From a virus, in the IMG/VR virus record IMGVR_UViG_3300023198_000833, positions 1-64,000 of that record: a stretch of 64,000 bases of DNA; one strand, 5' to 3'. Each line of letters begins with the position of its first letter. Within the stretch, counting starts at the first letter, position 1. Shown one piece after another: positions 11,408 to 61,935 of the stretch. A program made the position numbers and the translations under genes. The notes under the pieces are model-generated. The model saw nothing but the letters and a program-made list of their open reading frames with translations, did not search any database and was not told the origin of the DNA.

Positions 11408-11495
11408 CATAAGATTGTCGAATTGAGTGACGGCTAGACAGAGTTGCGTATCAGCTATAACGTATTCGTATCAATTCGACAACTGGGAGATAGTT

Positions 11496-20068: not shown

Positions 20069-20069
20069 T

Positions 20070-47412: not shown

Positions 47413-50400
47413 GACGGCCTCAGGGTTAATAAAAAATCTTCAAGGAACATATGTCGACGTTTAGTTCCAGCTTCAGCACCTAAATAATTTACTCCACTTC
47501 TGGAAATATTTTCTATTAGATAAGCATTCGCTCCACCTTTAATAAACAACTCTTGAGTAACGTCGTCTAACGTATCAGTAATATCATTTATTTTTGCCCA
47601 GCCGGTTTTATAATCTACACTTCTGATTCTTAATTGAACTGAGTGATGCGCGATTGTTTGACCAGCCATATGTCTGCCATCGAGTGTTGGCGAATGATCA
47701 TCGACAGCACCTGCATTATTTTCAACATTCATTCCGTCTGGAAGATGCGTCAAATATACTGGCCAACTTTGACTATCTGACGGCAAACTCATTTTACCAA
47801 TGTAGGCTAAGTAAGCTTGCATAATTGCAGCCGGCGAATCTAATAGATAATCAGCGATCTCTCGATCAGTCACCGTAACTACGACTGAATCCGTCAAGCC
47901 AATAGTATCGTAAACGTTGATAAAGAATACAGTACCATTCACCCATTCAGTATAATCTTCGAGTTGTATATTATCGAATACCGAAATATGAAAAACAGGT
48001 AACTGCGTAAGTAAATAATCTGTTACTTGAATATCATCGCCAACTGATATTAAAAACTTATCAAACGCTGTGTTTGAATAATCAGTAACTATTACGTCGT
48101 CATAAACACTGACATATAGTTGGTCTGCTACCTCTGCCTCAATAATTGTAGTGTCAGAAACTTCAATCGAATCGTAAACTTCAATTCGTAAAACAGGAAT
48201 CGAAACATCAGCTACGTCTGTTACTGTGATTGAATCATAAACGCTAATATATAGTTTAGCGGCTGCTTCTGATTCAATGATAATCGTATCGGTTACTTGA
48301 ATCGAATCAAAGACGCTAACTTCATAATGATCAAGCGCAGCACTAATTTCATCTGAAACGATTATGTCGTCATAAGTATTAATTAATAGTACATCAAGTA
48401 AGGTAGTTGTTACATCAGTTACTTGAACTAAATCAAATACATCAATCTCGTATAGATTAAGAGCTAAGTTAACTGACTCAATAACTGTTATGCTGTCGAA
48501 TACGTCAACGTTTAAAATCCCAGCACCTAACAATTGAGCATTAAACGTATCAGATAATCCAATTGTTTCAAAAACATTAATTTCATATAGGTTAAGTGCA
48601 GCGCTAATAGCATCCGATAATCCAATTGAATCGAATACCTCAACTTCGAGTTCGTTAGCTGCATCGCCTAATAGTGCAAGATCGATATAAAAGTTATGCG
48701 TTGGATTGCCAGCTGACGTATGAGCAATCTTTAATCGAATCTTGCCGGCTGAAATATAATCAGGATCGTTAATTAGTACAAAATGATAGTCTTGCTTAGA
48801 TGCTGTCGATGGAAAATCAATCGCATCAGTTGTAACATCTGTCCAATCAAGCGCATTGTAATCCCATTGCTGTAATTTAGTAATATGTGCTGGGTTACCA
48901 TCGTACCAAGCCGCGAGATCTATAACTAAATCTGTATCAGGAACTGCTTCGAATTCTCCAAACTCGAGCTCAATTTCAGAGCCCGGTGTGCCTACTTCCT
49001 CGTTCACAATTAACTCGACACCGTTATTTGAATAAGTATCAACTAACGTGCCAGATTGAATACTCGTTGTAACTGTAATATCTGTAGGCAAGTACCAAGG
49101 AACTACTACCAGCGGAGTTACGTCTTCAGTTACAACGATTGAGTCGAATACGTTAACAAGTAAAATTGGAATCGAAATATCAACTGCATCAGTAACCGTA
49201 ATTGAATCGTAAACATATGCTAACAAAATTGGAATCGAAATATCGACAGCGTCAGTTGCCGCAACTTCATCATAAGCAGCAATTAATAAAATTGGAATCG
49301 AAATATCAACAGCGTCAGTTACTGCAATTGAATCGTAAACATTAATTTCATATAAGTCAAGTGCTAAATCGATCGCCTCAGTAACCGTAATTGAATCAAA
49401 CACATCGATGTTTAAAATTCCAGCACCAACTGCTTGTATATTTAATGCATCTGAAACTCCAATTGAATCGAAAACCGAAGCTAAAAGAACTGGAATTGAA
49501 AGTTCAACCACATCAGATATTTCAATCGTGTCAAAAACTTTGATCGCTAAGAACGGGACTTCAACCGTTTCGGAATCAGTCACACCGATTGAATCGAATA
49601 CATTAACATTAACGAATGGAATATTAACATTAACGTAATCTGTAACTCCAATATTATCAGAGTAAATATCAATATGCTTAATAAGACCTTCAACTTGTGG
49701 AATATTAACGACTGCTAAACCAGCACCGTCCGTTAACGTAACCCAAGCGTTATCGTACTTCCACATCGTATCGTCAGCACCGTTAAGATTCGTCTCATCT
49801 CTTAACCAGTCAACGATCACAGGATCGGTCTTATCAGAAATATCGATTAAAACTAAAGTGTGTCGATACCTGCCAGTGGCAATTGCCCAATTATCATTAA
49901 TAATATCCGGAACATATGCGCCGCTTAATATATCTGCATCTGCGACGTAACCTTCAATGTACATTCCTTCGGGAGCATCTACGTTAATAATATTAAAGCA
50001 TTGTTTTTCAGATGTCGGTAAGGATGGTGACGAACATGCATAAGCTTTACCATTCACTACAATAACGCCGGCGAGACGTTCAAATCTTTTCGTTACGTCG
50101 TCAGTTAAATGCTGACCTAAGCTAATTGTATCTGTTACAGAAACATCAAAAGAAGTTATCCGTTTAGACCATCTACAAGCGGCGAAAATATATCCGTCAT
50201 GATAACCGCAAGATATGATTCCGTTTATATCAGCATCGGGACCGTATGTTGTAATCCAAGTTGGATTTAATGAGTCTGAAATATCATAAGCCGAAAGTCT
50301 TTGACCTTGAAACGCGCATATAAACGCTACTCTTGCTCGACCCCATATATTTCTAACAATCACCGTGCCTGCTGCACCCGTTAATCGATCATTCTCACCG

Positions 50401-52409
50401 GGCCCATCAATTACCGTCGAAACTATTGAAATATTATCGGGGTCTTCAACATCCACCATGTGGATGGCATCTGAATAGATAGTAGTAATAAACGTATGCT
50501 TGCCGTCCGTTTCAACATACTCTATTCCGTTAAGATTAACTGCATCTGGACCGATTTGATCTCTTTCAGTTATCGCTGATATTGTTGAAGAATCCAGCGT
50601 AAAGAAAGAATCTCCAGAAAGGCCAGCGATATGTACAACGTCTCGAAGTACGTCAACCCATCCAGAATCATCAAGATCAACATCAAAGAATGTTCCTGCA
50701 ATTGACATCTGGCCTTGATGTGCAAAGTCTGTTAAGCTAATATCATCATAAACGGAAATCGCTAAGAAAGGAACCTCAACATTTTCAAAATCCGTTAAAG
50801 TAATTGAATCGAATACAGAAACTAAATATAAGTTTAGCGCTACTGTACTCGCATCTGTTACTCCAACTGAATCGAATACATCGATTGCTAAAACATCTGC
50901 TCCCGTTAGTTGTACAGTCTCGACATCAGTTACAGTAATCGAATCGAAGACTGATATTACAAGTACTGGAACTGAAAGCGTAATTGCGTCAGTTACTGCA
51001 ATTGAATCAAATACGTTAATCTCATATAAGTCTAAGGCTAAGTCAACTGCGTCAGTTACTGCAATTGAATCGAATACATTAATCTCATATAAGTCTAAGG
51101 CTAAGTCAACTGCGTCAGTTACTGCAATTGAATCGAATACATTAATTAGTACTATCGGCTCTACTGCAATTTCGATAGTTACAGCTTCTATTACTTGAAC
51201 TGAATCGAATACGTTAACAAGTAAAATCGGAATCGAAATATCAACTACATCGGTGATTCCAACTGAATCAAAAGTATTAATAACTAGAATAGGAATCTCA
51301 AGTATTGGAGTGTCTGATACTCCAATTGAATCAAAAACACTAATACTTAAGCTTGCGGCACCGGCTGCAACCTTAAACGCCACCATCGCATATGCTTCGT
51401 AGAACCACATATCTTTATTGGCGTCTTGACACATCATCCCCATTTGTTGGGCGTTAAATAATGCCTGTGACCAAGCTGTCGGTGTTGCTTCCCAAGTAGA
51501 TGTTTCGTATTCTGCAACCCATGTAGGGTCTTTAGGGTCGTCTAAAGCTGTCATGCCAGACCGGCCAGAAGCATCACGGCCATATATATTATACTCATCA
51601 ACAGAACCGCCGCCTGCAGTTTCATAATAATATAGGAAATTCACCGCTTCAATCGTATCGGAACCACCAATACCAGAAAGATTGCCGGAGCCACAATCAT
51701 CTAAACCAACCGAATAATACTGTGCTACACCATCGGCTTCTGCCCAGTTGTAATCTGTAATGTTCGGCGGGTCTTGGTCTATCTCTGTATATACAGCAGG
51801 CGTGTTGTCTGAATCCTGCCAATCTGACCCTGTTCCTGTGTCTTGGTCTGTACCTTCCGCTACTGGACGGGCGGCTAAAACTCGGATATCTCCGAGGTCA
51901 TCAGTTGAACTTGTATCATCAAAGGATACATCATCCATATTGATGGTTGTACTTGAATTAGAACTTTGACCTATACTTACAGATGAAGCAAAATCCGCCC
52001 CTTGAGCAACTGAGCATATTTCAACCCCATCCATATATAATTTCGTCGTTGAGCCATTAGTAGCAAGGCATAAGCGTTGATGCCCAGATGTAACAACTGT
52101 TTCTGTGGACGTATCAGTAGAACCGTTTACATCAAGTGTCAAAGTATCATCTGTATTTAATGTAACCTTATCTCCACCCGCCGCCCAAAGAATATCTGCT
52201 GCTGTTGAAAGACTTGCACTTGGTCTGATAGACAGATTTATTCTGTTCGGTGCGGACGCTACATTTTTAGTCACATAACCAGTATTACCTGATAGAAGTC
52301 TATAATTTCCAGTGCGGGGAGAAAGACCTGACACTGAAATTGCACCGCTCGACGCATCCCAAGCATCTGTCCCGCCAGCTTCAAAACCATCATGGAAAGT
52401 TAATGCCAT
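47409..52409 (-). CDS. giant repeat-containing virion protein (1666 aa) with dozens of 21-aa xVFDSIxVTDxxxxxxPxLxI repeats
   Basis: Two repeat blocks with DNA-level tandem 63-bp units, e.g. near-identical copies at about 50987-51049 and 51050-51112. The C-terminal 150 aa are homologous to the next gene. Confidence 0.6.
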   Translation of the reverse strand: MALTFHDGFEAGGTDAWDASSGAISVSGLSPRTGNYRLLSGNTGYVTKNVASAPNRINLSIRPSASLSTAADILWAAGGDKVTLNTDDTLTLDVNGSTDTSTETVVTSGHQRLCLATNGSTTKLYMDGVEICSVAQGADFASSVSIGQSSNSSTTINMDDVSFDDTSSTDDLGDIRVLAARPVAEGTDQDTGTGSDWQDSDNTPAVYTEIDQDPPNITDYNWAEADGVAQYYSVGLDDCGSGNLSGIGGSDTIEAVNFLYYYETAGGGSVDEYNIYGRDASGRSGMTALDDPKDPTWVAEYETSTWEATPTAWSQALFNAQQMGMMCQDANKDMWFYEAYAMVAFKVAAGAASLSISVFDSIGVSDTPILEIPILVINTFDSVGITDVVDISIPILLVNVFDSVQVIEAVTIEIAVEPIVLINVFDSIAVTDAVDLALDLYEINVFDSIAVTDAVDLALDLYEINVFDSIAVTDAITLSVPVLVISVFDSITVTDVETVQLTGADVLAIDVFDSVGVTDASTVALNLYLVSVFDSITLTDFENVEVPFLAISVYDDISLTDFAHQGQMSIAGTFFDVDLDDSGWVDVLRDVVHIAGLSGDSFFTLDSSTISAITERDQIGPDAVNLNGIEYVETDGKHTFITTIYSDAIHMVDVEDPDNISIVSTVIDGPGENDRLTGAAGTVIVRNIWGRARVAFICAFQGQRLSAYDISDSLNPTWITTYGPDADINGIISCGYHDGYIFAACRWSKRITSFDVSVTDTISLGQHLTDDVTKRFERLAGVIVVNGKAYACSSPSLPTSEKQCFNIINVDAPEGMYIEGYVADADILSGAYVPDIINDNWAIATGRYRHTLVLIDISDKTDPVIVDWLRDETNLNGADDTMWKYDNAWVTLTDGAGLAVVNIPQVEGLIKHIDIYSDNIGVTDYVNVNIPFVNVNVFDSIGVTDSETVEVPFLAIKVFDTIEISDVVELSIPVLLASVFDSIGVSDALNIQAVGAGILNIDVFDSITVTEAIDLALDLYEINVYDSIAVTDAVDISIPILLIAAYDEVAATDAVDISIPILLAYVYDSITVTDAVDISIPILLVNVFDSIVVTEDVTPLVVVPWYLPTDITVTTSIQSGTLVDTYSNNGVELIVNEEVGTPGSEIELEFGEFEAVPDTDLVIDLAAWYDGNPAHITKLQQWDYNALDWTDVTTDAIDFPSTASKQDYHFVLINDPDYISAGKIRLKIAHTSAGNPTHNFYIDLALLGDAANELEVEVFDSIGLSDAISAALNLYEINVFETIGLSDTFNAQLLGAGILNVDVFDSITVIESVNLALNLYEIDVFDLVQVTDVTTTLLDVLLINTYDDIIVSDEISAALDHYEVSVFDSIQVTDTIIIESEAAAKLYISVYDSITVTDVADVSIPVLRIEVYDSIEVSDTTIIEAEVADQLYVSVYDDVIVTDYSNTAFDKFLISVGDDIQVTDYLLTQLPVFHISVFDNIQLEDYTEWVNGTVFFINVYDTIGLTDSVVVTVTDREIADYLLDSPAAIMQAYLAYIGKMSLPSDSQSWPVYLTHLPDGMNVENNAGAVDDHSPTLDGRHMAGQTIAHHSVQLRIRSVDYKTGWAKINDITDTLDDVTQELFIKGGANAYLIENISRSGVNYLGAEAGTKRRHMFLEDFLLTLRPS

Positions 52410-52410
52410 A

Positions 52411-52842
52411 TTACCACCATTCCCCTGTAATAGGGCCAGCCTGTTTATTCTGAATCCTAATATTAAAACTTAAAGGACTGGCGGTGTAAATATGAACGGC
52501 AATATATGTTTTGATAGCTATGAAATCGCTACCGTCTACGTATTCATACGGCAGCAATACAGGCGGGACTTCTAATGCTCTATCGTCTGGTTCTAAATCA
52601 GCTAACGGAATGATTGTTGAAAATGCCGGTTGGAGTTGCAACCATTCGTTGAACTTATCTTCTTTCTTTTTGAGATTACCTGATACACCGGCAAGGCGAC
52701 CTTGGATATTCAGCTTCGATTCGACAAAAGACGCTCCATCCGTCAAAGCAATATCAATCCCATCCTCAAAATTTATGCTTCTTACTGGCGGCATATTGGA
52801 TACTCCCTGCAAATCTGTGGACGAGTTGTGTATATAACGCAA
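52411..52842 (-). CDS. hypothetical protein (143 aa)
   Basis: ORF only. Confidence 0.3.
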   Translation of the reverse strand: MRYIHNSSTDLQGVSNMPPVRSINFEDGIDIALTDGASFVESKLNIQGRLAGVSGNLKKKEDKFNEWLQLQPAFSTIIPLADLEPDDRALEVPPVLLPYEYVDGSDFIAIKTYIAVHIYTASPLSFNIRIQNKQAGPITGEWW

Positions 52843-53060
52843 TCTTTGTTAGGAGCAATAAACGGACAGAGGCCACCTTTGTGTTTTTTCCGTATTATAA
52901 ATGGCATTTTCTTTTCAATCATATACGCTCTTGTTTTTGGATTACCAACATTCTGTATCGGAGTCACGACTTGCCAAAGTCTCGGCTCTCGATTCATATC
53001 TTCAAGAGTTAAGGTAACTCCAGTCCCACGACAACACTTTCCGCATTTTTTACACGGCAT
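52782..53060 (-). CDS. Cys-rich metal-binding protein (YkgJ/UPF0153-like)
   Basis: CKKCGKCC ... CPFIAPNKDC ... CREYPIC. Confidence 0.4.
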   Translation of the reverse strand: MPCKKCGKCCRGTGVTLTLEDMNREPRLWQVVTPIQNVGNPKTRAYMIEKKMPFIIRKKHKGGLCPFIAPNKDCVIYTTRPQICREYPICRQ

Positions 53061-53069
53061 CTTTACTCC

Positions 53070-53867
53070 TTATGCCGGATATTGTCTTCCAGTACTTAAA
53101 TCAATATGTTTGCAAAAGATGTTTGTATCGCATAGAAACGGATATTTCTTTCGACCGATTTTCGGCCAGCCCGCTCGAGCAATAACTTTTTCTTTAATTA
53201 CGCGATGACACCATGCTAAGTCTGACGTACCGCTACCGGATGCGAATGATTTTGTTTCTTGATCAAAGTACATCTTAGCTGGAGTTTCAAATATCTTCTT
53301 TGTTACTTTTTTACCTAACGTCTCATACGGCTCACTTTCATCCCACATGATTTTAATAATCTTAGAATGAATTAATAGAAAGCCGGTCGGTACGCCGTCA
53401 GCCCATACTTTCTGACCAACTTTAAAATTATCGTAACAACCATTACCTAAACCGCGATATAAAATCGGCTCAGTATAGTTGCCCTTGATATAATATAGTC
53501 CACTTACAACCGGCACACTTTCATCTCGCATATACTGATTCAATTGTAGTAATGCGTCGTGCGGTGGGACTACGTCATCTTCCCAAAGTAAAAGCCATTC
53601 ATAGCCTTTTGCAACAACATCTTCACAGCCTAAATTTTGAGCATCTGCTACAAGGTAATGCATGGGCACTGTGCAGCCGATACCGAGTGAGGCGCTTGAT
53701 GCAGACCAGTTAGGCGGGGTCACTTGCCCGTATCGAGCCATGACCCATTCCATACGAACTTGTCCAAGAGTTGGAGTTACAATCAACAACCGTACGCGTG
53801 GGTTGCCATTTTTGCCGCTCTTAAGAATTGTCGTATACTCTGACATTTTAGGAGTTCGTTTTTTCAT
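53070..53867 (-). CDS. putative GT-A-like glycosyltransferase (265 aa)
   Basis: LLLWEDDVVPPHD DxD-like segment. Weak. Confidence 0.3.
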   Translation of the reverse strand: MKKRTPKMSEYTTILKSGKNGNPRVRLLIVTPTLGQVRMEWVMARYGQVTPPNWSASSASLGIGCTVPMHYLVADAQNLGCEDVVAKGYEWLLLWEDDVVPPHDALLQLNQYMRDESVPVVSGLYYIKGNYTEPILYRGLGNGCYDNFKVGQKVWADGVPTGFLLIHSKIIKIMWDESEPYETLGKKVTKKIFETPAKMYFDQETKSFASGSGTSDLAWCHRVIKEKVIARAGWPKIGRKKYPFLCDTNIFCKHIDLSTGRQYPA

Positions 53868-54136
53868 GATTTAGATTTATCCCTCGTAATGATTTCGACA
53901 TTACACACATCAGTTAATTTAACTGCACTGCCGGGTATATTATTATTTTTTGCCGGCATTACAACTAACTTCGCGTGCGTCGTAACTAATACTCCTTTCG
54001 TGTGCGTCGGATCAGGATTTTTTAAACACGTATTAATATGTTCATCTAAATCGGCTTCGTCTTTACAACGAACTTTACACATTCCACAAACCCATACTTC
54101 GAGTCCCATTCTAATTCTCCGTAACTGCGTCGTCAT
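53864..54136 (-). CDS. small zinc-ribbon protein (90 aa)
   Basis: CGMCKVRC ... H..C Cys cluster. Confidence 0.3.
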   Translation of the reverse strand: MTTQLRRIRMGLEVWVCGMCKVRCKDEADLDEHINTCLKNPDPTHTKGVLVTTHAKLVVMPAKNNNIPGSAVKLTDVCNVEIITRDKSKS

Positions 54137-54668
54137 CTTTAACTTTTTTAACTTCGGGCAATATTGGATTACCCTTCTTATCTTTTCTCGGTTCCATAAT
54201 TAATTCAAGGCAACCGTTCATACAGAAAATGTTCCGAACTATTTTCCAAGGTAACGGTTTTCTGTAACTGCACGAATGCCATAACTGATAGTCAGGATCG
54301 AAAAATTGAAATGTTGCTTCGTTAGGACACATATAATGAGCTGGATGAGCAGCTTCTAAAAAACTGCCAGCATATGGGCAAGATAATAAAAGCTGTCCAT
54401 CGTGTCTCATGATTCGCCATACTTCATCCATTAACTCGAATCTGTATTTTGGTTCAATATGTTCCCAAACGTGAGACATCAAAACTTGAAAACAGATATC
54501 ATCCGGAATCGGTTTCCACGGCATCTTTTGAATATCCCACACAATATCGACATTAGGATGATTCATTATATCCATGCCGATGAAACGCGGCTGTTTAAAC
54601 AATCCACAGCCGACATCAAGCTTAATGCCTTTCGCTTTTTGAAATAAATGTTTATGTGTTTTTGACAT
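54111..54668 (-). CDS. class I SAM-dependent methyltransferase
   Basis: KLDVGCGLFKQPRFIGMDI motif I. Confidence 0.5.
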   Translation of the reverse strand: MSKTHKHLFQKAKGIKLDVGCGLFKQPRFIGMDIMNHPNVDIVWDIQKMPWKPIPDDICFQVLMSHVWEHIEPKYRFELMDEVWRIMRHDGQLLLSCPYAGSFLEAAHPAHYMCPNEATFQFFDPDYQLWHSCSYRKPLPWKIVRNIFCMNGCLELIMEPRKDKKGNPILPEVKKVKDDDAVTEN

Positions 54669-54694
54669 TGTACTAATCGTTCTCCGTAATTTGA

Positions 54695-55261
54695 TTATGT
54701 AGTCGAGTACCTCAGCTCGTAGGTACAGTTCACATCTTGATCAGTCGTTATAGCTGAAGATGCAAACGTGTTACCTGCAATAATCGTTCCAGTTGACGCT
54801 GCAAAGATACCAATATTTGAAAGTGTGGCCGCATCCAAAGTACCGTCAAAAGATACAGTCATACGTGCGGTTAAACTTGCAATCACAGCGCTTTGAGCAA
54901 AAGCTGAATAATATTTTGACAGGCTCTGATGTAATGCAACTGCATCACTGGCTGGAACAGTGCCGCTGCCTAACAAAATGCCAGCTGCTTGTACAGACCC
55001 AGCGCCGATCGGCGCCGCGACAATACAACTGTTCAAACCGTAATTAGTGATCTGATTTTCCATGAAGCCAGTATCACCAACTATCTTACGCGTTTTCCTA
55101 TCTACAAGTTGAAGGCGCGTAAAACCTTTAACTGCGACTCTACTTTTTGTCTTCATTTTTACTCCTAAATTAAATACCTGCGTAAACCGCAACAATTCGT
55201 AACATCTCTTTACGTTTCTCTCGAGCTGGGCGTTCCAAGTATTTAGCTTGCTGATTTTCAC
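54695..55261 (-). CDS. virion structural protein (188 aa, Gly/Ala/Ser/Thr-rich)
   Basis: Composition and position. Confidence 0.3.
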   Translation of the reverse strand: MKISKLNTWNAQLERNVKRCYELLRFTQVFNLGVKMKTKSRVAVKGFTRLQLVDRKTRKIVGDTGFMENQITNYGLNSCIVAAPIGAGSVQAAGILLGSGTVPASDAVALHQSLSKYYSAFAQSAVIASLTARMTVSFDGTLDAATLSNIGIFAASTGTIIAGNTFASSAITTDQDVNCTYELRYSTT

Positions 55262-55619
55262 CGCGGTTAAACATTCCGCCTTCAGCAGTACGTGCTCGGG
55301 ACGATGCGTTCAAAATCTCATCCCGATGTTTCTCATTAAATTTACGTCCATGGGCTTTTGTTAAATCTTCGTGAACATAGACTGCATACTCTGCTGTGAA
55401 CCCAACAACAACATCTGTACTAAGTCCAGAACCGAATCGCCGAGTGAAAGCGGTATCTTTTAAGTTTCCTGTTTGAACAGGAACCATTTTCATACTTTCA
55501 CGTTGCAGAAATAAGCCAGCATAGGTTAGGCCGACTCCAGCTCGATCGGCGATTTGATTCTTGGCCTTAGACAGTCGTTCCAGTAATTCAGGAATGCCTT
55601 TTAATTCAAGCATTTTCAT
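55170..55619 (-). CDS. head-tail joining region protein (149 aa)
   Basis: Position. The start is probably downstream of the listed one, which overlaps the next gene. Confidence 0.3.
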   Translation of the reverse strand: MKMLELKGIPELLERLSKAKNQIADRAGVGLTYAGLFLQRESMKMVPVQTGNLKDTAFTRRFGSGLSTDVVVGFTAEYAVYVHEDLTKAHGRKFNEKHRDEILNASSRARTAEGGMFNRGENQQAKYLERPAREKRKEMLRIVAVYAGI

Positions 55620-56065
55620 AAATAAGCAATCCTTAAAAACTTATCTGCTTTTAATGTGGGTATTTTGTCAAAGCGTTTAATCTCCCAAGCTCCTGCATTG
55701 TTTTTAGGGATTACTAAATCGCTTACGTCAACTAACGCGCTTAACAGTAATGCTCCGCCGGGCCTAACATCTTGCCCAACGTAAACTAATGAATGGGATA
55801 ATTCACGCGTCCCATTCGCATTAATAAACTCTTCTGATTTATCTTCCCAACGACATAGAAGTTCAACAGGAGTAGCATACAGCGGTTGACCGTAATCATC
55901 GAAGTCAGCCCCACCAGATGCTTCTGAACCCGGCGGCCAATATACTGCAGTCTGTTTTCGCATCGTTGTTAAGATTCTCATAGAGAGCCCGCCGCTTTCA
56001 AAAGTGCAACTATTACGCCGCCACTGGCGAGCCCGCTGCCAATTGCAATACCAATAGAGACGCAC
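55616..56065 (-). CDS. head-tail joining region protein (149 aa)
   Basis: Position. Confidence 0.3.
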   Translation of the reverse strand: MRLYWYCNWQRARQWRRNSCTFESGGLSMRILTTMRKQTAVYWPPGSEASGGADFDDYGQPLYATPVELLCRWEDKSEEFINANGTRELSHSLVYVGQDVRPGGALLLSALVDVSDLVIPKNNAGAWEIKRFDKIPTLKADKFLRIAYL

Positions 56066-56183
56066 ATCATTTTTAATATACTACGACCATGCGGGCAAGA
56101 TTGTATATGCAGTTGAAGAACTTCAGCTACAATCTCTCTGGCCAACTCCTTGCAAGTATTCTTGTCACCGTTGTCTAGCATAC

Positions 56184-56585
56184 TTAATCCTCAAGGTCCT
56201 CTTTTTCGGTTCCTAAAGACGTAACGCTTACAGGAATCGCGCCGCCTTTTTTCGATTGCTGATTTAAAGTAGACAGAGCCCCAGACCAATCTAAACGCAT
56301 CGCCATTTGACCGTAGTGACTTAAGTCAAAACCTAAATCAACTTTGCTTTGGTACCGTGCGCTAACTTGACCAGCTCGTTCTTCAGAAGCTCTTGCTTTA
56401 TACATCGCATAGAAGTGAGCTGCTAGCCACCGTTCAATTATTTCTAAATCAGTAACTGTAAAGTCAGCATGCGTACAATTTTTGGTCACAATAACATTAG
56501 CTGCTTCAATGAACGGAGTTAAATCATCTCCAACATCAACTTCAATAATCGCTGAAACAGCTATGCTTGTAGTTCGTGTGGCCAT
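56184..56585 (-). CDS. head completion/adaptor-like protein (133 aa)
   Basis: Position. Confidence 0.3.
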   Translation of the reverse strand: MATRTTSIAVSAIIEVDVGDDLTPFIEAANVIVTKNCTHADFTVTDLEIIERWLAAHFYAMYKARASEERAGQVSARYQSKVDLGFDLSHYGQMAMRLDWSGALSTLNQQSKKGGAIPVSVTSLGTEKEDLED

Positions 56586-56588
56586 GTC

Positions 56589-57041
56589 CTATCCTTTCGG
56601 CGGTAATCCACGTAGACCTCGGATGACGTTTTCGAGCACCTTATTATCGATACCCGCAATATCCAGTCCTTTTATAAGTAAAGGTTCTAGATGCTTCCAA
56701 TCTTCAGGGTAATCTTTCTTTAAGGCGTCGATTGCATCAACCATTGAACCTGCGACAGTGTTAGCTACCTCAGCTTTATTTTGAGCTTCAACGTATCGCG
56801 GTTTTAATTTTCGCCAAACGCCTAACGCCGCTAAAAGAGCTGAACCTGCAATTGTTACACTGGGTCCAAACAGAGGTGTTAAAAGCGTAAGCACTCCTGC
56901 TGTACCTTCGACTCCAGCCTCTACTTGAATCGCAGTATTCGGATCAACGGAATAAGTCTTTTCGCCGGACTCATCTGTTGCAACATTACAGCTAACTAAT
57001 AGCAGCAACGGTAAGACGGTTATTAGTAATAACTTTCGCAT
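56589..57041 (-). CDS. predicted lipoprotein
   Basis: MRKLLLITVLPLLLLVSC signal peptide with a lipobox (LVSC). The start is trimmed to this Met to avoid overlap. Confidence 0.45.
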   Translation of the reverse strand: MRKLLLITVLPLLLLVSCNVATDESGEKTYSVDPNTAIQVEAGVEGTAGVLTLLTPLFGPSVTIAGSALLAALGVWRKLKPRYVEAQNKAEVANTVAGSMVDAIDALKKDYPEDWKHLEPLLIKGLDIAGIDNKVLENVIRGLRGLPPKG

Positions 57042-57681
57042 ACTTATTCCTTTCTTGCCAAAAGGCGTCAAAGTCTAATTTTGTAAAAAGATTTAAACTA
57101 CTTTTCTTTGTCACGTTTAAAATTCGACAGTTAGGAAATTTTTTCAAATCTTTTCTTACATGAATAAACGCTGACACCATTCGAGCATAAACATCAGAGC
57201 CCGGTTTATCAATTAGGTGGTTATGCCAATTAGGCTTTCCATTGTTATCAAGGAACATGTCAAAACCTAAAAGATAAATCGTTGACGCCCCTAACATTAA
57301 AGCTAAGTTAATCGCCGCGGCTCCCGTGTTAGCATTATAGCCTAAGGTCTCGATTCCTAATCCTCTAACCTTACGAGGAATATACTTTAACCAAGGCTCT
57401 TTACGATTACGTAACTGATCATCGTTTGTTACGATCGGATTTGGAAATTTTGAAAGTTCTTCATAGAAGCCCCACCGCGGTTCATCGCTATCAAATATAA
57501 ATCCTTTATCACAAAATATGCAAATGTTGCATACTTTAGGACCTAATCTGAAAGCATTATTACAACCGATAGTATTCTCGTGCTCCAGTACAGACCAATC
57601 AAAATTTCGAAGAGAGGTACCGCCACCTATAATAAAGCAATCTTGATCTTGCCAAATTTTTTCAGGTTTCCATTGAGGCAT
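56992..57681 (-). CDS. second CstII/GT42-like (MptE/DUF115 clan) putative glycosyltransferase
   Basis: CFIIGGGTSLRNFDW and GAAAINLALMLGASTIYLLGFDMF...NWHNH parallel 35545..36192. Confidence 0.5.
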   Translation of the reverse strand: MPQWKPEKIWQDQDCFIIGGGTSLRNFDWSVLEHENTIGCNNAFRLGPKVCNICIFCDKGFIFDSDEPRWGFYEELSKFPNPIVTNDDQLRNRKEPWLKYIPRKVRGLGIETLGYNANTGAAAINLALMLGASTIYLLGFDMFLDNNGKPNWHNHLIDKPGSDVYARMVSAFIHVRKDLKKFPNCRILNVTKKSSLNLFTKLDFDAFWQERNKYAKVITNNRLTVAAIS

Positions 57682-58124
57682 TACTCTATATAGCCTTTAA
57701 GAAATGCGGGAATCTCATCTTTCTTTAAGTACCCTTCGTTGACGACTTGGTTTGTGCCTTTGTCTACAACGGTATACTTACCGCCGGGCTTTAAGTAGAC
57801 TAAGCAGTTAGCCAATCGAGCGCCCGGAAATTGAATCGTTACGTCCCGTCCCAATACAGGCGGCGCGATAGCGACTGGCGTATCGGAGGCCGTACCTGTT
57901 AAGGCCGGTTCCTCCGATACATTAACGCCAGCTCGGAGAACGCTTACTTCAGATTCTGATAACTTTCGAAATTTATCTCGACCGAAATTCTTAACCAAAT
58001 CGCTTTCGGATTCTACAATGGGCATCTTCTTATCGACGATCTCATTGTTGTCACCTCGAATAAGTTCAACCTCGAATACTTCCGTAGCCTCGCGATGAAC
58101 TCCAAATAACAATTGAAAAAACAT
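57681..58124 (-). CDS. hypothetical virion protein (147 aa)
   Basis: Position. Confidence 0.3.
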   Translation of the reverse strand: MFFQLLFGVHREATEVFEVELIRGDNNEIVDKKMPIVESESDLVKNFGRDKFRKLSESEVSVLRAGVNVSEEPALTGTASDTPVAIAPPVLGRDVTIQFPGARLANCLVYLKPGGKYTVVDKGTNQVVNEGYLKKDEIPAFLKGYIE

Positions 58125-58170
58125 ATGACTATCCTTTCCAAACTAAGCAACCGTTTAACTGGCCTTACAG

Positions 58171-59226
58171 TTATACGCTACCGTGAACAATTCCGGTGTT
58201 CCCATTGATATCTGCCCGCAGCTGCGGTACCATGATCGTCATAACTTTGTAATTTTTCTGGAGACCACCCATGGTGTCCCATTCCAAAGTCATGACCTCA
58301 AGGCCAATGACAATACGCATGACCTCTGGGTTCATCTCGAGCATAACTGATTCGTAGCCGCTCAGATAATCCAGAGTTTTAATGTCGCTGATTCCGTCGA
58401 TTTCTTTAAGACGGTTACGCAGCGTTTTATTCGGATAACTTGTATTGAAGTCGTTATCCAAATACCGATCCCAGCCTGTAGCGAAGTACAGAGTCCATGG
58501 GCCGTAGTGCTTGTAGGTTTGAGATGTTTGTCGCATCTCCAAAACCTCATCCAACAGCGTAGCTGGGGTCCAGCCGGTAGCTGTGGGACTTGTCAGCGTT
58601 TGTGTGAGACGACCGGTATAATTTGTCATACCGTAAATCGTCCCGCCGCCGTAGGTGTACGTATCTAACGAACCTATGACGAGTTGTTCAACCATTTCTG
58701 CGACCTTACGACCGGCGAGTTCGCCCATTGTAGTATCGAGCGGCGCACCGCTTTGTCGAGATGTCTGAATCTGTCTCAGGCTGAATTGAAAATCTTTGTG
58801 AACGATTGGCAGTGGCAAGAACTGTGAATCGAATTGCGGGCGATCATCGTCACCGAGACGAATCCCGTCCATGCTAATCGACGCATCGTTGATGTCACTC
58901 ATCCGCTGATATTCGAGAACCGTAGTTCCCATACCATTGGGGATTCCATAGGTCAAGCCGGCGCTGCGTAAATCGGCTACAACTCTCAGGCGGTTTCTTG
59001 CTGCTCTGAGAATAGCTGTATCCAATTGCAGCCATGCTTCCTTCGTTAACGTTGCCGCATTCGTGCGAACCTTAGTAGGTACGCCGCCGCGGTTAAGTGT
59101 AACGTACGGAAGGCCGTCTTTACCTATCCATGGCCTCAGTGCTCCGACATCGAAATTGCAGGCAAGCAATTTTTCTTTAATGTCGTTTGAAGAGGCCGCT
59201 CCGTTAAACATAAAATCGATAGGCAT
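58171..59226 (-). CDS. putative major capsid protein (351 aa)
   Basis: Size, position downstream of the protease/scaffold and decoration genes. No explicit motif. Confidence 0.5.
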   Translation of the reverse strand: MPIDFMFNGAASSNDIKEKLLACNFDVGALRPWIGKDGLPYVTLNRGGVPTKVRTNAATLTKEAWLQLDTAILRAARNRLRVVADLRSAGLTYGIPNGMGTTVLEYQRMSDINDASISMDGIRLGDDDRPQFDSQFLPLPIVHKDFQFSLRQIQTSRQSGAPLDTTMGELAGRKVAEMVEQLVIGSLDTYTYGGGTIYGMTNYTGRLTQTLTSPTATGWTPATLLDEVLEMRQTSQTYKHYGPWTLYFATGWDRYLDNDFNTSYPNKTLRNRLKEIDGISDIKTLDYLSGYESVMLEMNPEVMRIVIGLEVMTLEWDTMGGLQKNYKVMTIMVPQLRADINGNTGIVHGSV

Positions 59227-59265
59227 CTATTTCTCCTTTCATAAAGAGAATAAAACGAGTTGCAA

Positions 59266-59709
59266 CTATTTGATACGTACTTTGACCAAAGTAATTGCGG
59301 TTGTGGTTATCGCCTCTTGTGCATAGGCAATAGTTTCTTGAACGGTAACCCCACTTGAAGCGTTATCGCGAGCTTTAAGAGTACCGTCGCCGGCACTAAT
59401 AAGCTGCTCTCCAATCGTGAGTGTCTCGCCGCTGGCGACTTGCATAATAAATTCGTCGCCCGGCATTGCGAGAGCAAGGAAGACCTGGTCGAGAGCGGAA
59501 TAATCATCCGTAACAGTATTGCCTTGAAGAGCATCTTCGAGAGCAATCATTTTCTCAGACCGTCCACCTTCAGTTGAGTGTGCTTGAACGGTGCCAGCTG
59601 CAATCTCTTCAGTAAGCATGCCCGGAGTAATTGTGCCAGCCGCCACGCGCTCTTCACCACGCCAGTAAAGGCCTTTGCTATGAATCTTTCGATACGTTGG
59701 CATATTCAA
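59266..59709 (-). CDS. putative head decoration protein (147 aa)
   Basis: Small Ala/Thr/Gly-rich protein between the scaffold and capsid genes. Confidence 0.35.
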   Translation of the reverse strand: MNMPTYRKIHSKGLYWRGEERVAAGTITPGMLTEEIAAGTVQAHSTEGGRSEKMIALEDALQGNTVTDDYSALDQVFLALAMPGDEFIMQVASGETLTIGEQLISAGDGTLKARDNASSGVTVQETIAYAQEAITTTAITLVKVRIK

Positions 59710-59725
59710 ACCTTTCTTTTAATGG

Positions 59726-61057
59726 TTATGCACTCTGGAAATTCATGACCGGTAATCCCAGCGGCTCTTCAGTGTTTGTGACTACAGCGTCTTCCTGTCC
59801 GAGATAATCAGGTTGATTATTATTCTCGGTAACAGGCGGTGCGGCCAGTCTTGCTAACGACTGTAGTTCAACGACTTGACACGCCTTGAGGTATTCCTCA
59901 GTGAACGTGTTTCGGCTATTGCCCGTAATAATGGCAATCAGCTTTGCTTTCTCACGCTGCAGCGATGCGACGCTCGAATTTAGCACCTCACGAATACCTT
60001 CAGGTGCATCGCTAATATACTGCTCCATTGTCTTCGGCACTGGAGTAGCGATATTAACGACGGGCTCGGTTACTGCCGGGCTCGGTTCCTCGTTGGCGAC
60101 GGGGGCGACCGCTTCAGGTGCCTTTATCGTCAACTCGAGTTGTTCTAACGCCTTATCATTCATCGCCATGAGTTCTTCGCGGTCATCGTCGGACCACGGA
60201 GTGTTCTCATTCGATATGAGGGCGTTCACGACTTTCTCTTTGTCCATTGTCGTTCCTTTCTCAATAACTTTGTCATTTCCCACAAACTTGCCGTCAGTGG
60301 CTTTACGATATTCTACAACTCTCACTACCTCTTCGACATCGTCAACGAGGGTAACCTCGTCTTCAGCATCGAGATAGCTTTGACGATACAATTTTACGTC
60401 TTTTTCAAATACGAAAAAGTTGTCATATACATCTTCAATCCAAACGTCATCTGCTATTAATACGGATAGTTTCATTCGAATCGAACCGTGACTCATTTCA
60501 TTCAATCGAAGTAAGCCAGCGCCGTCAGCGATTGAACAAGCACCTTTTGAATCTGGAAGTAAGGCAAGATGATCTAAAATCAAATTGCGTGCGGTGCCAA
60601 TATAAGGCTCGCCGTTCCATTCACCGGGCGTCCTATCCAGATTCATAAATAGGCCGGTACTTAATTCCATCATTTCATTTTGTTCGATAGCTACTGATAC
60701 GCGATTATCTACCTTCTCCATTCGAGCAGGTTCCAGCCAAGCTTCGCCTTTTACTTTCCCGTCGTCGAAACTTGATGACATGGTGATGCCCACTTTACGA
60801 GCAGATAATTCTGCAGGTTCACAGGCACTAACACCTTGCCCGTTCTGTACTGGATGATACACCACTACTGGACGATGATCCCATGCCGGTGTGATCTTAT
60901 CAAGTTCTTCTTTTGGATAAAAAATCGGACCATCGCTACCGTTGTGAACGCCTTCTGTAATCATAACCATCGGCGCTACTAAATAATCACGATCTTCCAT
61001 CTTTTCATTACGAACAGTTGCTTTAACATTCGTTGTAACAAATTGAAAGTCTGGCAT
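59726..61057 (-). CDS. putative prohead protease / scaffolding protein
   Basis: The start is trimmed to MPDFQF, which has a strong SD (AAGGAGAUCCA AUG). The listed start overlaps the Mu F gene by 150 nt. Acidic coiled-coil C-terminal half. Confidence 0.45.
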   Translation of the reverse strand: MPDFQFVTTNVKATVRNEKMEDRDYLVAPMVMITEGVHNGSDGPIFYPKEELDKITPAWDHRPVVVYHPVQNGQGVSACEPAELSARKVGITMSSSFDDGKVKGEAWLEPARMEKVDNRVSVAIEQNEMMELSTGLFMNLDRTPGEWNGEPYIGTARNLILDHLALLPDSKGACSIADGAGLLRLNEMSHGSIRMKLSVLIADDVWIEDVYDNFFVFEKDVKLYRQSYLDAEDEVTLVDDVEEVVRVVEYRKATDGKFVGNDKVIEKGTTMDKEKVVNALISNENTPWSDDDREELMAMNDKALEQLELTIKAPEAVAPVANEEPSPAVTEPVVNIATPVPKTMEQYISDAPEGIREVLNSSVASLQREKAKLIAIITGNSRNTFTEEYLKACQVVELQSLARLAAPPVTENNNQPDYLGQEDAVVTNTEEPLGLPVMNFQSA

Positions 61058-61068
61058 TGGATCTCCTT

Positions 61069-61935
61069 TTAATTTACTGTGCTTGCTATTACAGGTAACC
61101 ATGCGCATCGGCAATTTGGATGTAATGGAATCAAGCCATGAGCGTCCTCGACTGAGTAAACTTCGCCGCTCATTCCTTCGCACTGTTCGCATACTCGCTC
61201 GTCTTCGGCTGTTGACCATTCCACAAACGCTCCTACTTCTGTAATACCTAATCGGGTATAAGAATCTAATGAGCCTTCAGCATGCGCCCGTATAACTTCG
61301 GTACGTGCTAACACGCGAGCTCTTTTACTCGTTATTGTATCAATGGTCTTTGCCATCGTTCGAGCGATAGTCAAGGGATTCTCACCTCTTGCTAATCCAT
61401 CAGCTAATATTCTTGACATCTGTTGACTCATTGCAGTCGTTATTCCATTCAGTTCTTCAAAGGTACGTATCGAAACTAATCGAAGCTTGCTAACCATTTC
61501 TGGAGCAAAGAAACTTGATCGTATAAAACTTTCTTTAGTGCCTACGTACATTTTTTCAAATTGCGAATCAGTAACTAATTTATGCGTTTCAATATACGAC
61601 CGTTCTACGCCTCTGGTATACGCTGAACTTACATAATCAGAAGTCCATGGGTCACCTACAACATTGGTCGTCAATATGTTTTCGTCAATTTGAGATTTAA
61701 ACCAATTATTAAATTCAGTTAACTTACTTGGGTCAGATTGAAAATCGAACGTACGCAATTCAACATTTAAAGTTAGCGCATTGTCTCGACCAACGACCTT
61801 TAATATTATTCTTCTTAACTTTCCAAAACGTCGATTCATATCAGCAACAAAGGACCGACGTAAAAGAACTGTCCTTGTCGGATCAATCTTCAACGGGTTC
61901 TTTGCCATCGTCATCCTCAGGTTCTTTGTCGTCAA
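61069..61935 (-). CDS. Mu F-like head morphogenesis (minor capsid) protein
   Basis: C-terminal ...CEQCEGMSGEVYSVEDAHGLIPLHPNCRCAW is the Phage_Mu_F signature. Confidence 0.65.
   Translation of the reverse strand: MTTKNLRMTMAKNPLKIDPTRTVLLRRSFVADMNRRFGKLRRIILKVVGRDNALTLNVELRTFDFQSDPSKLTEFNNWFKSQIDENILTTNVVGDPWTSDYVSSAYTRGVERSYIETHKLVTDSQFEKMYVGTKESFIRSSFFAPEMVSKLRLVSIRTFEELNGITTAMSQQMSRILADGLARGENPLTIARTMAKTIDTITSKRARVLARTEVIRAHAEGSLDSYTRLGITEVGAFVEWSTAEDERVCEQCEGMSGEVYSVEDAHGLIPLHPNCRCAWLPVIASTVN

Follow-up and report, generated by a model that had tools for sequence, protein, structure and literature searches.

Enzyme genes lying among the head and tail genes of a phage raise the question of what these enzymes act upon. 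The window analysed here is a stretch of 64,000 nucleotides from an uncultured tailed phage (IMG/VR record IMGVR_UViG_3300023198_000833, positions 1–64,000). A sequence-only reading of it proposed that enzymes encoded with structural genes modify virion components during assembly. The best reading at present, a tentative one, is that two independent modules in the late structural operon participate in virion glycosylation or methylation. Both modules would probably add sugars to the virus particle.

Organization of the late structural region

The genes of the two modules and their structural neighbours are all on the minus strand, where they are tightly packed into a single late operon. Neighbouring genes abut or overlap, which is consistent with co-transcription but falls short of proof, and promoter and terminator motif scans yielded chance levels with no excess. 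The structural genes that frame the two modules are as follows.

58171–59226, minus strand: major capsid protein (DUF6260/HK97-like; PF19774, 1.4e-24; phrog_771, 1e-27)
56184–56585, minus strand: head-tail adaptor (DUF4054-like; PF13262, 0.0057; phrog_302), kept in relatives
55616–55981, minus strand: neck protein in the head-closure position; relatives conserve residue 28 onward
55170–55619, minus strand: HK97 gp10-like tail-completion/Neck1 protein (phrog_5, 2e-9; PF04883, 0.0045)
46978–47412, minus strand: tail terminator
46522–46968, minus strand: tail tube gene

The head-neck order is protease, decoration protein, capsid protein, a small linker-rich protein, the Maf-like enzyme and the adaptor. 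The capsid gene product matches annotated major capsid proteins by tblastn; the gene anchors the conserved synteny, and its product is a possible modification target as well. The start of the neck protein is likely an internal Met.

Synteny with relatives reveals just two variable slots, which does not bear out the sequence-only claim that the enzymes are more than isolated insertions into a few gaps between genes. One slot carries the genes from 54695–55156 through a 1666-aa fibre gene, is bordered upstream by the gp10-like gene and downstream by the tail terminator, and is empty in 21 of 32 relatives. The enzyme genes form two separate modules and are not scattered. Locus surveys covered the best 80 loci per family, so more distant members may have other surroundings; CcrColossus gp126, for one, has tail and glycosyltransferase genes as its neighbours.

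A Maf-like enzyme beside the capsid gene

The first module lies next to the capsid gene and has a paralog elsewhere in the window.

57681–58124, minus strand: fast-evolving 147-aa protein with a P/A/S/T-rich central linker
56992–57681, minus strand: minimal Maf/GT42/MptE-like enzyme of 229 aa, predicted glycosyltransferase
56589–57041, minus strand: predicted lipoprotein with a signal peptide, the lipobox LLVSC and then a second hydrophobic segment
35545–36192, minus strand: first Maf/CST-I-like paralog (phmmer 2e-10; Pfam MptE-like, 3.5e-6; CST-I, 0.0024)

The paralog, which heads a separate glycosyltransferase/methyltransferase/radical-SAM cluster (29344–36192), bears out the view that 56992–57681 is a second GT42/MptE-like copy. 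By itself, the 229-aa protein scores 15.9 bits in Pfam, below the curated cut-off of 34.6. With a family profile, GT42 sialyltransferases are the sole matches at E < 0.002, and the nucleotide-binding motifs are aligned. The nearest solved structure is that of a protein O-glycosyltransferase.

Relatives of the gene are found on at least 455 viral contigs. In 62 of 63 loci, the capsid gene is found upstream of it at a distance of no more than 1.5 kb. Some relatives (L004 and L005) lack the Maf-like gene altogether. D3-like temperate Pseudomonas phages have a truncated homolog in the same place, in which the C-terminal half of the fold alone is kept. In the preferred reading, the gene is an old one with a fixed position in this phage lineage.

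Does the Maf-like protein still function as an enzyme? Genes at a fixed position in a head-neck module are usually structural, and the half-fold of the D3-like phages might be taken to mean that these enzyme-like folds serve as non-catalytic assembly or structural factors; the 229-aa protein could also be a pyrophosphokinase and not a glycosyltransferase. This is unlikely, given that the profile matches are exclusively to sialyltransferases and that residues G19–G21, S23, N41, D58, D141 and N151 are invariant, and H153 nearly so, among 31 diverse homologs (38–67% identity). These comprise nucleotide-binding and candidate catalytic residues, and their conservation argues for retention of catalysis.

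The 147-aa protein has a constant place between the capsid and Maf-like genes, and both L003 and L006 have homologs there. An ORF is present at this slot in 62 relatives, at ∼100–220 aa (61 aa in a single locus), and the most STPAG-rich 25-aa windows of these ORFs have a mean maximum of 0.56. The 147-aa protein may serve as an acceptor or as a specificity factor.

The lipoprotein reported next to the Maf-like gene is indeed present. Its real start is probably at 57041, which would yield MRKLLLITVLPLLLLVSC. A single homolog was found, in L106, in the same slot after the Maf-like gene; the other loci are without it.

A mobile cassette and a giant repeat fibre

The second module is the cargo of the variable slot.

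54695–55156, minus strand: cassette gene 1, a 153-aa fibre-type protein of an unannotated family
54111–54668, minus strand: cassette gene 2, a class I SAM-dependent methyltransferase of 185 aa with motif I LDVGCG
53864–54136, minus strand: 90-aa C2H2-type zinc-finger ORF (PF12874, 1.6e-4)
53070–53867, minus strand: cassette gene 3, a 265-aa DxD protein
52782–53060, minus strand: CxxCxxCC (YkgJ-type) metal or Fe-S binding protein of 92 aa with 8 Cys (PF03692)
52411–52794, minus strand: protein of ∼127 aa between the Cys-rich and fibre genes
47409–52409, minus strand: 1666-aa fibre, with 28 copies of a 21/24-aa VFDSIxVTD repeat in three blocks (repeat parsing)

The enzymes are wedged between neck and tail genes, as had been described. 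Cassette genes 1 to 3 occur in this order in ∼80 of ∼80 viral loci with enough flanking sequence, the methyltransferase always being in the middle. Among the phages concerned are a T7-like podovirus, an SU10-like podovirus and siphoviruses that differ in their portals and capsids. A protein sharing the VFDSIxVTD repeats is near the cassette in ∼45 of 84 loci, often as its immediate neighbour. At L093 the cassette is found inside a block of six glycosyltransferases and three methyltransferases, straight after the capsid gene. The cassette is horizontally mobile and has been inserted, with the giant repeat fibre, into the slot that the neck and tail terminator genes border. The mobility of the methyltransferase/DxD block, and its absence from most close relatives, count in part against the original proposal as worded. 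The block does, however, travel in the company of fibre genes and so is no unrelated insertion.

The family of the 153-aa protein has ∼1,200 clusters at 50% identity. Its sequences resemble tail-fibre N-termini: 9 of 20 members match the tail-fibre family phrog_4176 (best 1.5e-8; 0.001 for the member in the window), 12 of 20 match tail-fibre phrog_3737 (2e-6) and one matches Pfam Gp80 fiber I. Searched alone, the methyltransferase sequence gives a weak Pfam match (0.003), but its family profile matches the class I methyltransferase 3dli in the PDB at 1.9e-6, in support of the original assignment. Motif I and an invariant HxxEH block are retained in the family, and this too speaks against a non-catalytic role.

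The DxD protein is a probable GT-A-type glycosyltransferase. The earlier GT-A-like label gains from the invariant E96/D98 (EDD motif), which is accompanied by invariant GTSD216 and H254, and from 15 member-family matches, all below threshold, that link the 60 members searched with five GT-A Pfam families; no profile match is significant. A 20-sequence profile searched against the PDB finds only the viral GT-A protein STIV A197 (2c0n), at a non-significant E of 1.7, with the alignment spanning the DxD and the following Gly-Tyr segment; a wider 60-sequence profile did not recover A197. The family has >1,000 members at 53–78% identity and 0 homologs in 50,697 isolate phage genomes. Identity is 44–78% among phages with unrelated structural proteins. 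An acceptor that is itself conserved would account for this; it could be the 153-aa protein that travels with the enzyme, and equally a host molecule.

The fibre is probably a neck or collar fibre and is a candidate modification target. Its C-terminal ∼145 aa form a tail-terminator-like domain, homologous to 46978–47412, of which it is a paralog, and to an L007 gene that carries PF12691.

Other genes of the slot are less constant. The zinc-finger ORF, wedged between the methyltransferase and DxD genes, is unique to this genome, with homologs in 0 of the fetched loci. The YkgJ-like assignment of the Cys-rich protein is upheld by PF03692 at 1.2e-10, which exceeds the curated cut-off. The gene follows the DxD gene in L023 and L025 only and is beside the cassette in only three genomes; it is a cassette extension restricted to a sub-lineage. 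The 52411–52794 gene, with homologs at the same position in L023 and L025, is part of the same extension. The lipoprotein and Cys-rich protein are sporadic passengers and not parts of the conserved systems.

What the enzymes may modify

Several properties link the enzymes with virion proteins. The Maf-like gene keeps its place next to the capsid gene in 62 of 63 relatives, and the nearest structure to its product is a protein O-glycosyltransferase. The methyltransferase and DxD genes always travel with a fibre-type protein, and the enzymes are soluble and lack both transmembrane segments and signal peptides. This part of the original proposal is supported; its targets shift, with fibres and small accessory proteins as the likeliest, and the capsid or tail tube need not be among them.

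The Maf-like enzyme would act in the cytoplasm during assembly and transfer a nucleotide-activated sugar to Ser/Thr residues in one of the head or neck proteins. If Maf and CstII are a guide, the likeliest donor would be an ulosonic or nonulosonic acid activated with CMP, for example host CMP-Kdo; no CMP-sugar pathway was identified in the window. The enzyme itself lacks an acceptor-binding domain, which makes the small fast-evolving protein encoded just upstream the best candidate for acceptor or specificity factor. The methyltransferase and DxD enzyme may place a methylated sugar on the 153-aa fibre protein and/or on the Ser/Thr-bearing VFDSIxVTD repeats, with the fibre anchored at the head-tail junction via its terminator-like C-terminal domain. 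The biological role could be surface shielding or adhesion.

Perhaps the enzymes instead modify LPS, capsule or other glycans of the host envelope during infection or lysogeny, blocking superinfection or changing serotype, and lie among structural genes incidentally, as morons. Review text ties phage glycosyltransferases classically to serotype conversion, the slots also hold a lipoprotein and small membrane proteins, the D3-like phages with the truncated homolog are temperate, and the conservation of the DxD enzyme in unrelated phages would suit a conserved host acceptor. This is nevertheless rather improbable: seroconversion enzymes, unlike these, have membrane segments, a flippase or bactoprenol-transferase partner is lacking, scans of parts of the window revealed no integrase, the fixed Maf-like gene does not behave as a moron, and the cassette always has a fibre-type protein and in about half of its loci a nearby repeat fibre.

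Glycosylation or methylation of modified DNA bases is very doubtful, although the window encodes a thymidylate-synthase-like enzyme, dCMP deaminase, C5 DNA methylase and MazG-like protein, and its 29–36 kb cluster has a ParB_N-methyltransferase and a GT2 with a weak match to a TET-associated glycosyltransferase family: these hints belong to that other cluster, whereas the cassette sits in structural modules beside fibres in many phage types, the PDB matches of its methyltransferase family profile were class I enzymes that act on small molecules and not DNA methylases, and the nearest structure of the 229-aa enzyme acts on protein.

Comparison with known systems

The virion glycosylation or methylation proposed for these modules has several partial parallels. 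In the AIDA-I/AAH, TibA/TibC and HMW1/HMW1C pairs, adhesin-dedicated glycosyltransferases are encoded beside repeat adhesins. The fibre module may be likened to these, in that a soluble glycosyltransferase gene accompanies a long protein with ∼20-residue repeats and conserved Ser/Thr; the present system is viral and adds a methyltransferase and a small fibre-type protein. Among viral capsid-glycan GT-A enzymes, STIV A197 is of the DxD type, as is the phage protein (E 1.7), and Chlorovirus A064R has both glycosyltransferase and methyltransferase domains, a pairing also seen here. Their hosts are archaea or algae, however, and the gene contexts differ.

In the Salmonella flagellin lysine methylase FliB, a Cys-rich motif holds a [4Fe-4S] cluster for protein methylation. 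The motif of the 92-aa PF03692 protein is related, but FliB has CX4CX3CC and is much longer, and a search of the 92-aa protein against NCBIfam gave no FliB match.

Maf flagellin nonulosonic-acid O-glycosyltransferases and GT42 CstI/CstII (PF01973 MptE-like; PF06002) have the GxGxSL, CN and GxD motifs in common with the phage enzyme. Maf is likewise cytoplasmic and encoded beside genes for a polymerising surface structure, and published abstracts describe CMP-Neu5Ac or CMP-Kdo as usable donors. Maf acceptor specificity comes from an extra TPR domain or a small cis-encoded factor. At 229 aa, against 632 aa for Maf, the phage enzyme has no TPR or other acceptor-binding domain, adjoins a capsid gene and scores below the Pfam cut-off.

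In mycobacteriophage virion glycosylation, phage-encoded glycosyltransferases occur together with an O-methyltransferase and are linked to virion structural proteins (Freeman et al. 2023, as summarised in PMC11600133 and PMC12619734). The principle in common would be that capsid or tail proteins are modified in the cytoplasm. The targets there are the C-termini of capsid and tail tube proteins, whereas here fibres or small accessory proteins are likely, the enzymes belong to other families (Maf-like and the unannotated DxD family), and one module is a portable three-gene cassette.

Gene order in the late region

Every gene in the 46-64 kb part of the window lies on the minus strand, and neighbouring genes overlap or abut throughout this late region. 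Scans for promoter-like and terminator-like motifs gave no excess over chance frequency and are therefore uninformative on operon structure. A nucleotide search of positions 52400-60000 against 50,697 phage genomes returned zero matches.

Genes of the late region (coordinates, strand, product)
63229-63987, minus, terminase
61883-63232, minus, portal
61069-61935, minus, Mu-F-like head protein
59726-61219, minus, DUF2213 protease/scaffold
59266-59709, minus, decoration protein
58171-59226, minus, DUF6260-type major capsid protein
57681-58124, minus, 147-aa protein, no assigned family
56992-57681, minus, 229-aa MptE/GT42-like protein
56589-57041, minus, lipobox protein, 150 aa
56184-56585, minus, DUF4054-like adaptor
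between the adaptor and neck protein genes, minus, 67-aa membrane protein
55616-55981, minus, neck protein
55170-55619, minus, HK97 gp10-like protein
54695-55156, minus, 153-aa protein (cassette gene 1)
54111-54668, minus, methyltransferase, 185 aa (cassette gene 2)
53864-54136, minus, 90-aa zinc-finger open reading frame
53070-53867, minus, DxD protein, 265 aa (cassette gene 3)
52782-53060, minus, CxxCxxCC protein, 92 aa
52411-52794, minus, protein of ~127 aa, no assigned family
47409-52409, minus, 1666-aa repeat protein
46978-47412, minus, tail terminator
46522-46968, minus, tail tube, followed by chaperones and the tape measure protein

The sequence-only reading had described many enzymes interleaved with structural genes at many points. 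Comparison with other phages replaces this with two modules, one lineage-fixed Maf-like enzyme and one portable, fibre-linked cassette.

The capsid-linked Maf-like gene

The 229-aa protein matches phrog_4603 ('alpha-2,3-sialyltransferase') at 3.4e-20. As a single sequence it scores 15.9 bits against Pfam PF01973 (MptE-like; cut-off 34.6), and several of its homologs carry a precomputed PF01973 match. A large protein collection holds 141 relatives, all metagenomic and without annotation. In an alignment of 31 relatives (38-67% identity) the invariant residues are G19-G21, S23/L24, C40/N41, D58, G139/D141 and N151, with H153 nearly so. The profile of this alignment finds only the CstI and CstII sialyltransferases in the PDB (E 5e-4 to 1.4e-3), and the nucleotide-binding motifs GxGxSL, CN and GxD align to those of CstII. 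The Rossmann-like fold superimposes on Maf or CstI/II. The highest structural match is the Maf flagellin glycosyltransferase 5mu5 (score 13.7, 177 residues aligned), followed by the archaeal MptE pyrophosphokinase (11.8), CstI (10.6), and thiamine pyrophosphokinases and eukaryotic sialyltransferases (8-9). With Foldseek, too, matches of these kinds came up, all of them weak. From the motifs, the sialyltransferase profile matches and the structural ranking, the 229 residues amount to the minimal catalytic core of a Maf/GT42/MptE superfamily member.

Glycosyltransferase is the more likely predicted activity. The fold is also common to kinases, which calls for caution on virion modification; non-catalytic roles for the proteins considered here, or a kinase role, are unlikely. 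Maf flagellin glycosyltransferases proper, which pass a nonulosonic or ulosonic acid from its CMP-activated form to protein Ser/Thr, have extra acceptor-specificity domains, whereas the 229-aa protein consists of the core only, with no C-terminal TPR domain to serve as acceptor-binding module. In published work, Maf acceptor specificity comes from the TPR domain or from a small cis-encoded four-helix factor, GlfM. The 147-aa protein encoded upstream is a candidate partner of the 229-aa protein.

A relative of the 229-aa protein is encoded by at least 455 viral contigs in a pattern scan of IMG/VR, of which the best 80 (37-60% identity) were fetched. Sixty-three of these loci have at least 2 kb of upstream sequence, and in 62 of the 63 a homolog of the window capsid protein ends less than 1.5 kb upstream of the 229-aa-type gene. 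The conserved order is protease, decoration protein, capsid protein, (small open reading frame), MptE-like gene, adaptor, neck protein and gp10-like gene; the adaptor and the MptE-like enzyme have exchanged positions in five loci. The open reading frame between the capsid and MptE-like genes is fast-evolving, and nearly every copy has a central stretch rich in Pro/Ala/Ser/Thr/Gly (mean maximum 0.56 per 25 residues, 62 loci). Relatives with no MptE-like enzyme are also found (L004 and L005, capsid protein 56% identical). Given this synteny across relatives, the 229-aa gene has long belonged to the head-neck module of the lineage, at a fixed position, and is not a recent insertion.

More distant homologs occupy other settings. 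That of Caulobacter phage CcrColossus lies after a gene for a large tail protein and ahead of other glycosyltransferases. In Pseudomonas phage D3 and relatives, orf7, which corresponds to the C-terminal half only, lies between the capsid and connector genes. In D3-like temperate phages this remnant of the Maf-like fold has 135 aa. The same phages also encode, between head closure and terminator, a 276-aa protein and a methyltransferase; in L001 (Pseudomonas phage vB_Pae_U7) the remnant and these two genes fall within 8914-11380. These two were considered as cassette homologs and rejected as unrelated, so that the sole relationship to D3 is that of orf7 to the Maf-like C-terminal half, and the D3-like arrangement is analogous to that of the window.

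In one relative (L006, 11335-12610), a Tn7 TnsA-like endonuclease gene separates a 52-aa fragment, which matches the N-terminus of the adaptor, from the full adaptor gene that comes after it; the adaptor gene looks to have been interrupted by a homing-endonuclease insertion.

In the lipobox protein, the sequence MRKLLLITVLPLLLLVSC fits the bacterial lipoprotein pattern (positive N-region, hydrophobic region, [LVI][ASTVI][GAS]C), and the protein is a predicted lipoprotein of 150 aa. It has one homolog, in locus L106.

The three-gene cassette

The cassette consists of the 153-aa protein, methyltransferase and DxD protein genes. Scans found it in at least 221 IMG/VR contigs, and 84 loci were analysed; for this family, as for the 229-aa family, inspection covered only the 80 or so most similar loci, a reason for caution on virion modification. 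In profile searches of the 84 loci the order 153-aa protein, methyltransferase, DxD protein is present wherever there is enough upstream sequence, the sole exceptions being four cut-off loci. The VFDSIxVTD repeats of the 1666-aa protein recur in a protein less than 8 kb from the cassette in ~45 of the 84 loci, often directly adjoining it.

The same three genes are found in quite different phages: a T7-like podovirus with Head-tail_con, GP7 and Bbp16 (L008), a siphovirus with a DUF4055 portal and Phage_tube_2 (L009) and a third contig (L010). In an SU10-like podovirus (L094) the cassette is downstream of unannotated genes, and a laminin-G protein, an adaptor and a fibre protein follow ~2.6 kb downstream. 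In another contig (L093) it ends a block that starts directly after an HK97-type capsid gene and comprises six glycosyltransferase and three methyltransferase genes. Thus distributed, the methyltransferase/DxD block is a mobile cassette across phage morphotypes.

The six glycosyltransferases of L093 (the L016 contig, 1603-9814) are of GT4, GT2 and GT1 type. That block also has an HNH endonuclease and an Acb2/Tad1-like anti-defence gene, and a protein of more than 2,400 aa is encoded after the cassette.

Among 185,579 species genomes, eight contigs encode the DxD protein, all from metagenome-assembled genomes (MAGs; L174-L181). These are assigned to Sedimentisphaerales, Saccharimonadales, Aquaspirillum, Gemmatimonadota and Dependentiae. 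The Sedimentisphaerales protein is 75% identical to the window DxD protein, and one match, at the end of a 181-kb Saccharimonadales contig, may be a prophage. Close homologs in other sources bear the names of Phycisphaerales/Planctomycetota MAG proteins. MAG taxonomy is a weak hint to host identity.

The proteins of the cassette

With 2,463 word-search hits and 1,244 clusters at 50% identity, the family of the 153-aa protein is a large one, and nearly all members are standalone proteins of 150-190 aa. Searches of Pfam and NCBIfam with the window protein, and of the PDB with the family profile, gave no match, and an NCBIfam search of ten proteins of the region yielded nothing useful. Among 20 members compared with the PHROG and Pfam families, nine match phrog_4176 (tail fibre; best 1.5e-8), twelve match phrog_3737 (tail fibre; 2e-6) and one matches Pfam Gp80, 'podophage GP4 fiber I protein' (0.0035). 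The window protein itself matches phrog_4176 at 0.001 over the N-terminal part (profile positions 9-129 of 309). Judged from these provisional fibre-family annotations, the 153-aa protein most likely belongs to the virion as a small protein of fibre type. Ser and Thr are abundant in it. An alignment of the family shows two invariant motifs, GDxGW close to the N-terminus and N-x-S/T-Y towards the C-terminus. The second has the form of an N-glycosylation sequon, but may simply be a beta-strand pattern. A protease function, considered for the GDSGW motif, was rejected for lack of a conserved His and for the small size of the protein.

The family profile of the 185-aa protein matches the class I SAM methyltransferase 3dli at 1.9e-6, with motif I as LDVGCG and an invariant HxxEH block; as a single sequence the protein falls under the Pfam cut-offs.

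The DxD family has more than 1,000 proteins with 53-78% identity to the window 265-aa protein. The capsid protein is less conserved, its best relative being 71% identical. The DxD motif follows a hydrophobic strand (LLLWEDDV); across 60 members E96 and D98 never vary, and D97 has a conservation of at least 90%. G213-T214-x-D216 is also invariant and H254 nearly so. Sub-threshold Pfam matches among these 60 members are mostly to GT-A families: Glyco_tranf_2_3 in 8 (best 0.0045), and GT2, GT21 and GT25 in a few others. The sole PDB match of a first profile was the viral GT-A enzyme A197, aligned across the DxD (E 1.7), and that of a wider alignment was an unrelated PDZ-domain protein at chance level (E 1.6). 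With hhalign, comparison with a GT2 protein of the window and with a 7-member GT2 alignment gave a short stretch at the DxD (probability 0.1-0.2), and a single-sequence AlphaFold model was unusable (pLDDT 33). Because of these results the DxD protein is classed only as a probable GT-A enzyme, an assignment that is unproven. A tblastn search of 50,697 isolate phage genomes gave no match to it, and a cultured model is therefore nonexistent.

The 92-aa protein matches PF03692 CxxCxxCC (YkgJ-type) with 42.4 bits (cut-off 23); it has eight Cys in total, with CKKCGKCC at the N-terminus. Outside the window, this Cys-rich protein and the ~127-aa protein after it occur with the cassette only in L023 and L025. 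For the zinc-finger open reading frame, none of the fetched loci has a homolog.

The cargo slot and the giant fibre

The cassette lies in an interval, or cargo slot, between the gp10-like and terminator genes. Of 32 relatives with both borders visible, 21 have these two genes side by side, with less than 300 nt between them, and 10 have 2.2-4.3 kb of other cargo there. The slot content of the window is ~7.5 kb. Within this comparison set only L110 (same contig as L022) carries the cassette, and the full window arrangement is common to L013, L021 and L022. In the closest long relative (L003, 14537-18248) the slot is filled by different genes. Their products include one of 728 aa whose tail is an Ala-rich repeat, and two small ones (138 and 179 aa). 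With different fibre-like cargo there, the slot is thus a general hotspot for such cargo.

The 1666-aa protein has three blocks with 28 repeat copies of 21 or 24 residues. Its ~145 C-terminal residues (47409-47850) are homologous to the adjoining terminator gene, and also to a gene of locus L007 that bears the tail-terminator family PF12691. Relatives have one copy only of the terminator domain. In the window phage the terminator domain is therefore duplicated, one copy forming the end of a giant fibre, which suggests that the fibre is anchored at the head-tail junction.

Other gene sets of the window

A larger enzyme cluster (29344-36192, minus strand) directly follows the tail genes and ends ahead of an SNF2 helicase. 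It includes the other Maf/CST-I-like gene, a 297-aa methyltransferase, one clear and two weak GT2 genes, a ParB_N-methyltransferase fusion, a further methyltransferase, a radical-SAM/SPASM protein and a nucleotide-diphospho-sugar transferase. Its target could be the virion, DNA or the host.

At 18141-22093 (minus strand) a thymidylate-synthase-like gene, a dCMP deaminase, a C5 cytosine DNA methylase and a MazG/PRA-PH-like protein occur together, which hints at modified bases in the phage DNA. A third sugar-related set (1239-6512, minus strand) has a weak NTP-transferase (5901-6512), a Methyltransf_24 protein (3846-4361), a cupin/mannose-6-phosphate-isomerase-like protein (1239-2342) and several unannotated proteins; it could supply an activated sugar. 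A DUF7873 gene (10437-11168; match 2.8e-83), of a family with no assigned function, lies beside a single tRNA-Lys(TTT) gene (11335-11408).

Target of the enzymes

Action on virion components, as proposed from the sequence alone, survives in its substance, now with two modules in place of scattered enzymes. It is the best reading of the comparative data and the best model for these predicted enzymes, at somewhat under an even chance. Action on the virion is favoured by the strength of both linkage patterns, by the fact that the closest structural relative of the 229-aa protein glycosylates protein, and by the lack of membrane segments in the enzymes. By hydropathy, the 229-, 185-, 265- and 92-aa proteins have no signal peptide and no sustained transmembrane-like hydrophobic segment; one 25-residue stretch of the 229-aa protein is slightly over the threshold.

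A host acceptor would also suit the high conservation of the DxD enzyme. Gtr-type/O-antigen seroconversion modules, however, have membrane-embedded components that the enzymes here do not, and Pfam gave no matches to the parts of such modules (membrane glycosyltransferase, flippase, acetyltransferase). Modification of the host envelope by these enzymes is rather improbable, and their use in DNA modification very improbable; the rest of the probability falls to no named model.

In its extended form, virion modification would mean that a large uncultured fraction of tailed phages sugar-coat parts of their particles by means of enzyme families with no earlier link to virion modification, namely a Maf-like enzyme and a portable fibre glycosylation kit, a generalization that is doubtful at present. 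The minimal Maf-like enzyme would O-glycosylate head/neck proteins with a sialic-acid-like or Kdo-type sugar, with bacterial flagellin glycosylation as the model. The kit, comprising a small fibre protein as acceptor, a methyltransferase and a divergent GT-A enzyme, would move with repeat fibres between podoviruses and siphoviruses. The resulting exchangeable glycan coat might serve adhesion or evasion of recognition. No CMP-sugar/nonulosonate pathway was recognised in the window, and PDB searches of two candidates were negative; the nearest sugar-pathway candidates are the weak NTP-transferase, the cupin/mannose-6-P-isomerase-like protein and the unannotated proteins of the third sugar-related set.

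Should both modules glycosylate virions, the trait would be widespread in environmental phages, given at least 455 viral contigs with the Maf-like gene and at least 221 with the cassette; the 153-aa family, with more than 1,200 clusters at 50% identity, would add to its potential spread. Three large unannotated protein families would acquire a function. Portable fibre-modification kits would bear on phage host range, surface adhesion and immune visibility, and the strict three-gene cassette is a compact system open to direct testing.

Comparison with known systems

Phage-encoded modification of virion proteins is already known as a kind of system. What appear to be undescribed are the enzyme families, the linkage of a Maf-like gene to the capsid gene, and the strict cassette, both in its partnership with a fibre-type protein and in its movement between morphotypes; literature searches on these families, the cassette and the capsid-linked gene found nothing. 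To our knowledge, some mycobacteriophages are essentially the only phages whose particles have been shown to be glycosylated by enzymes, and there the modification changes antibody recognition. The window system resembles that of the mycobacteriophages at the gene level. If virions are the target, the chemistry would differ from that of mycobacteriophages and possibly involve sialic-acid-like and methylated sugars.
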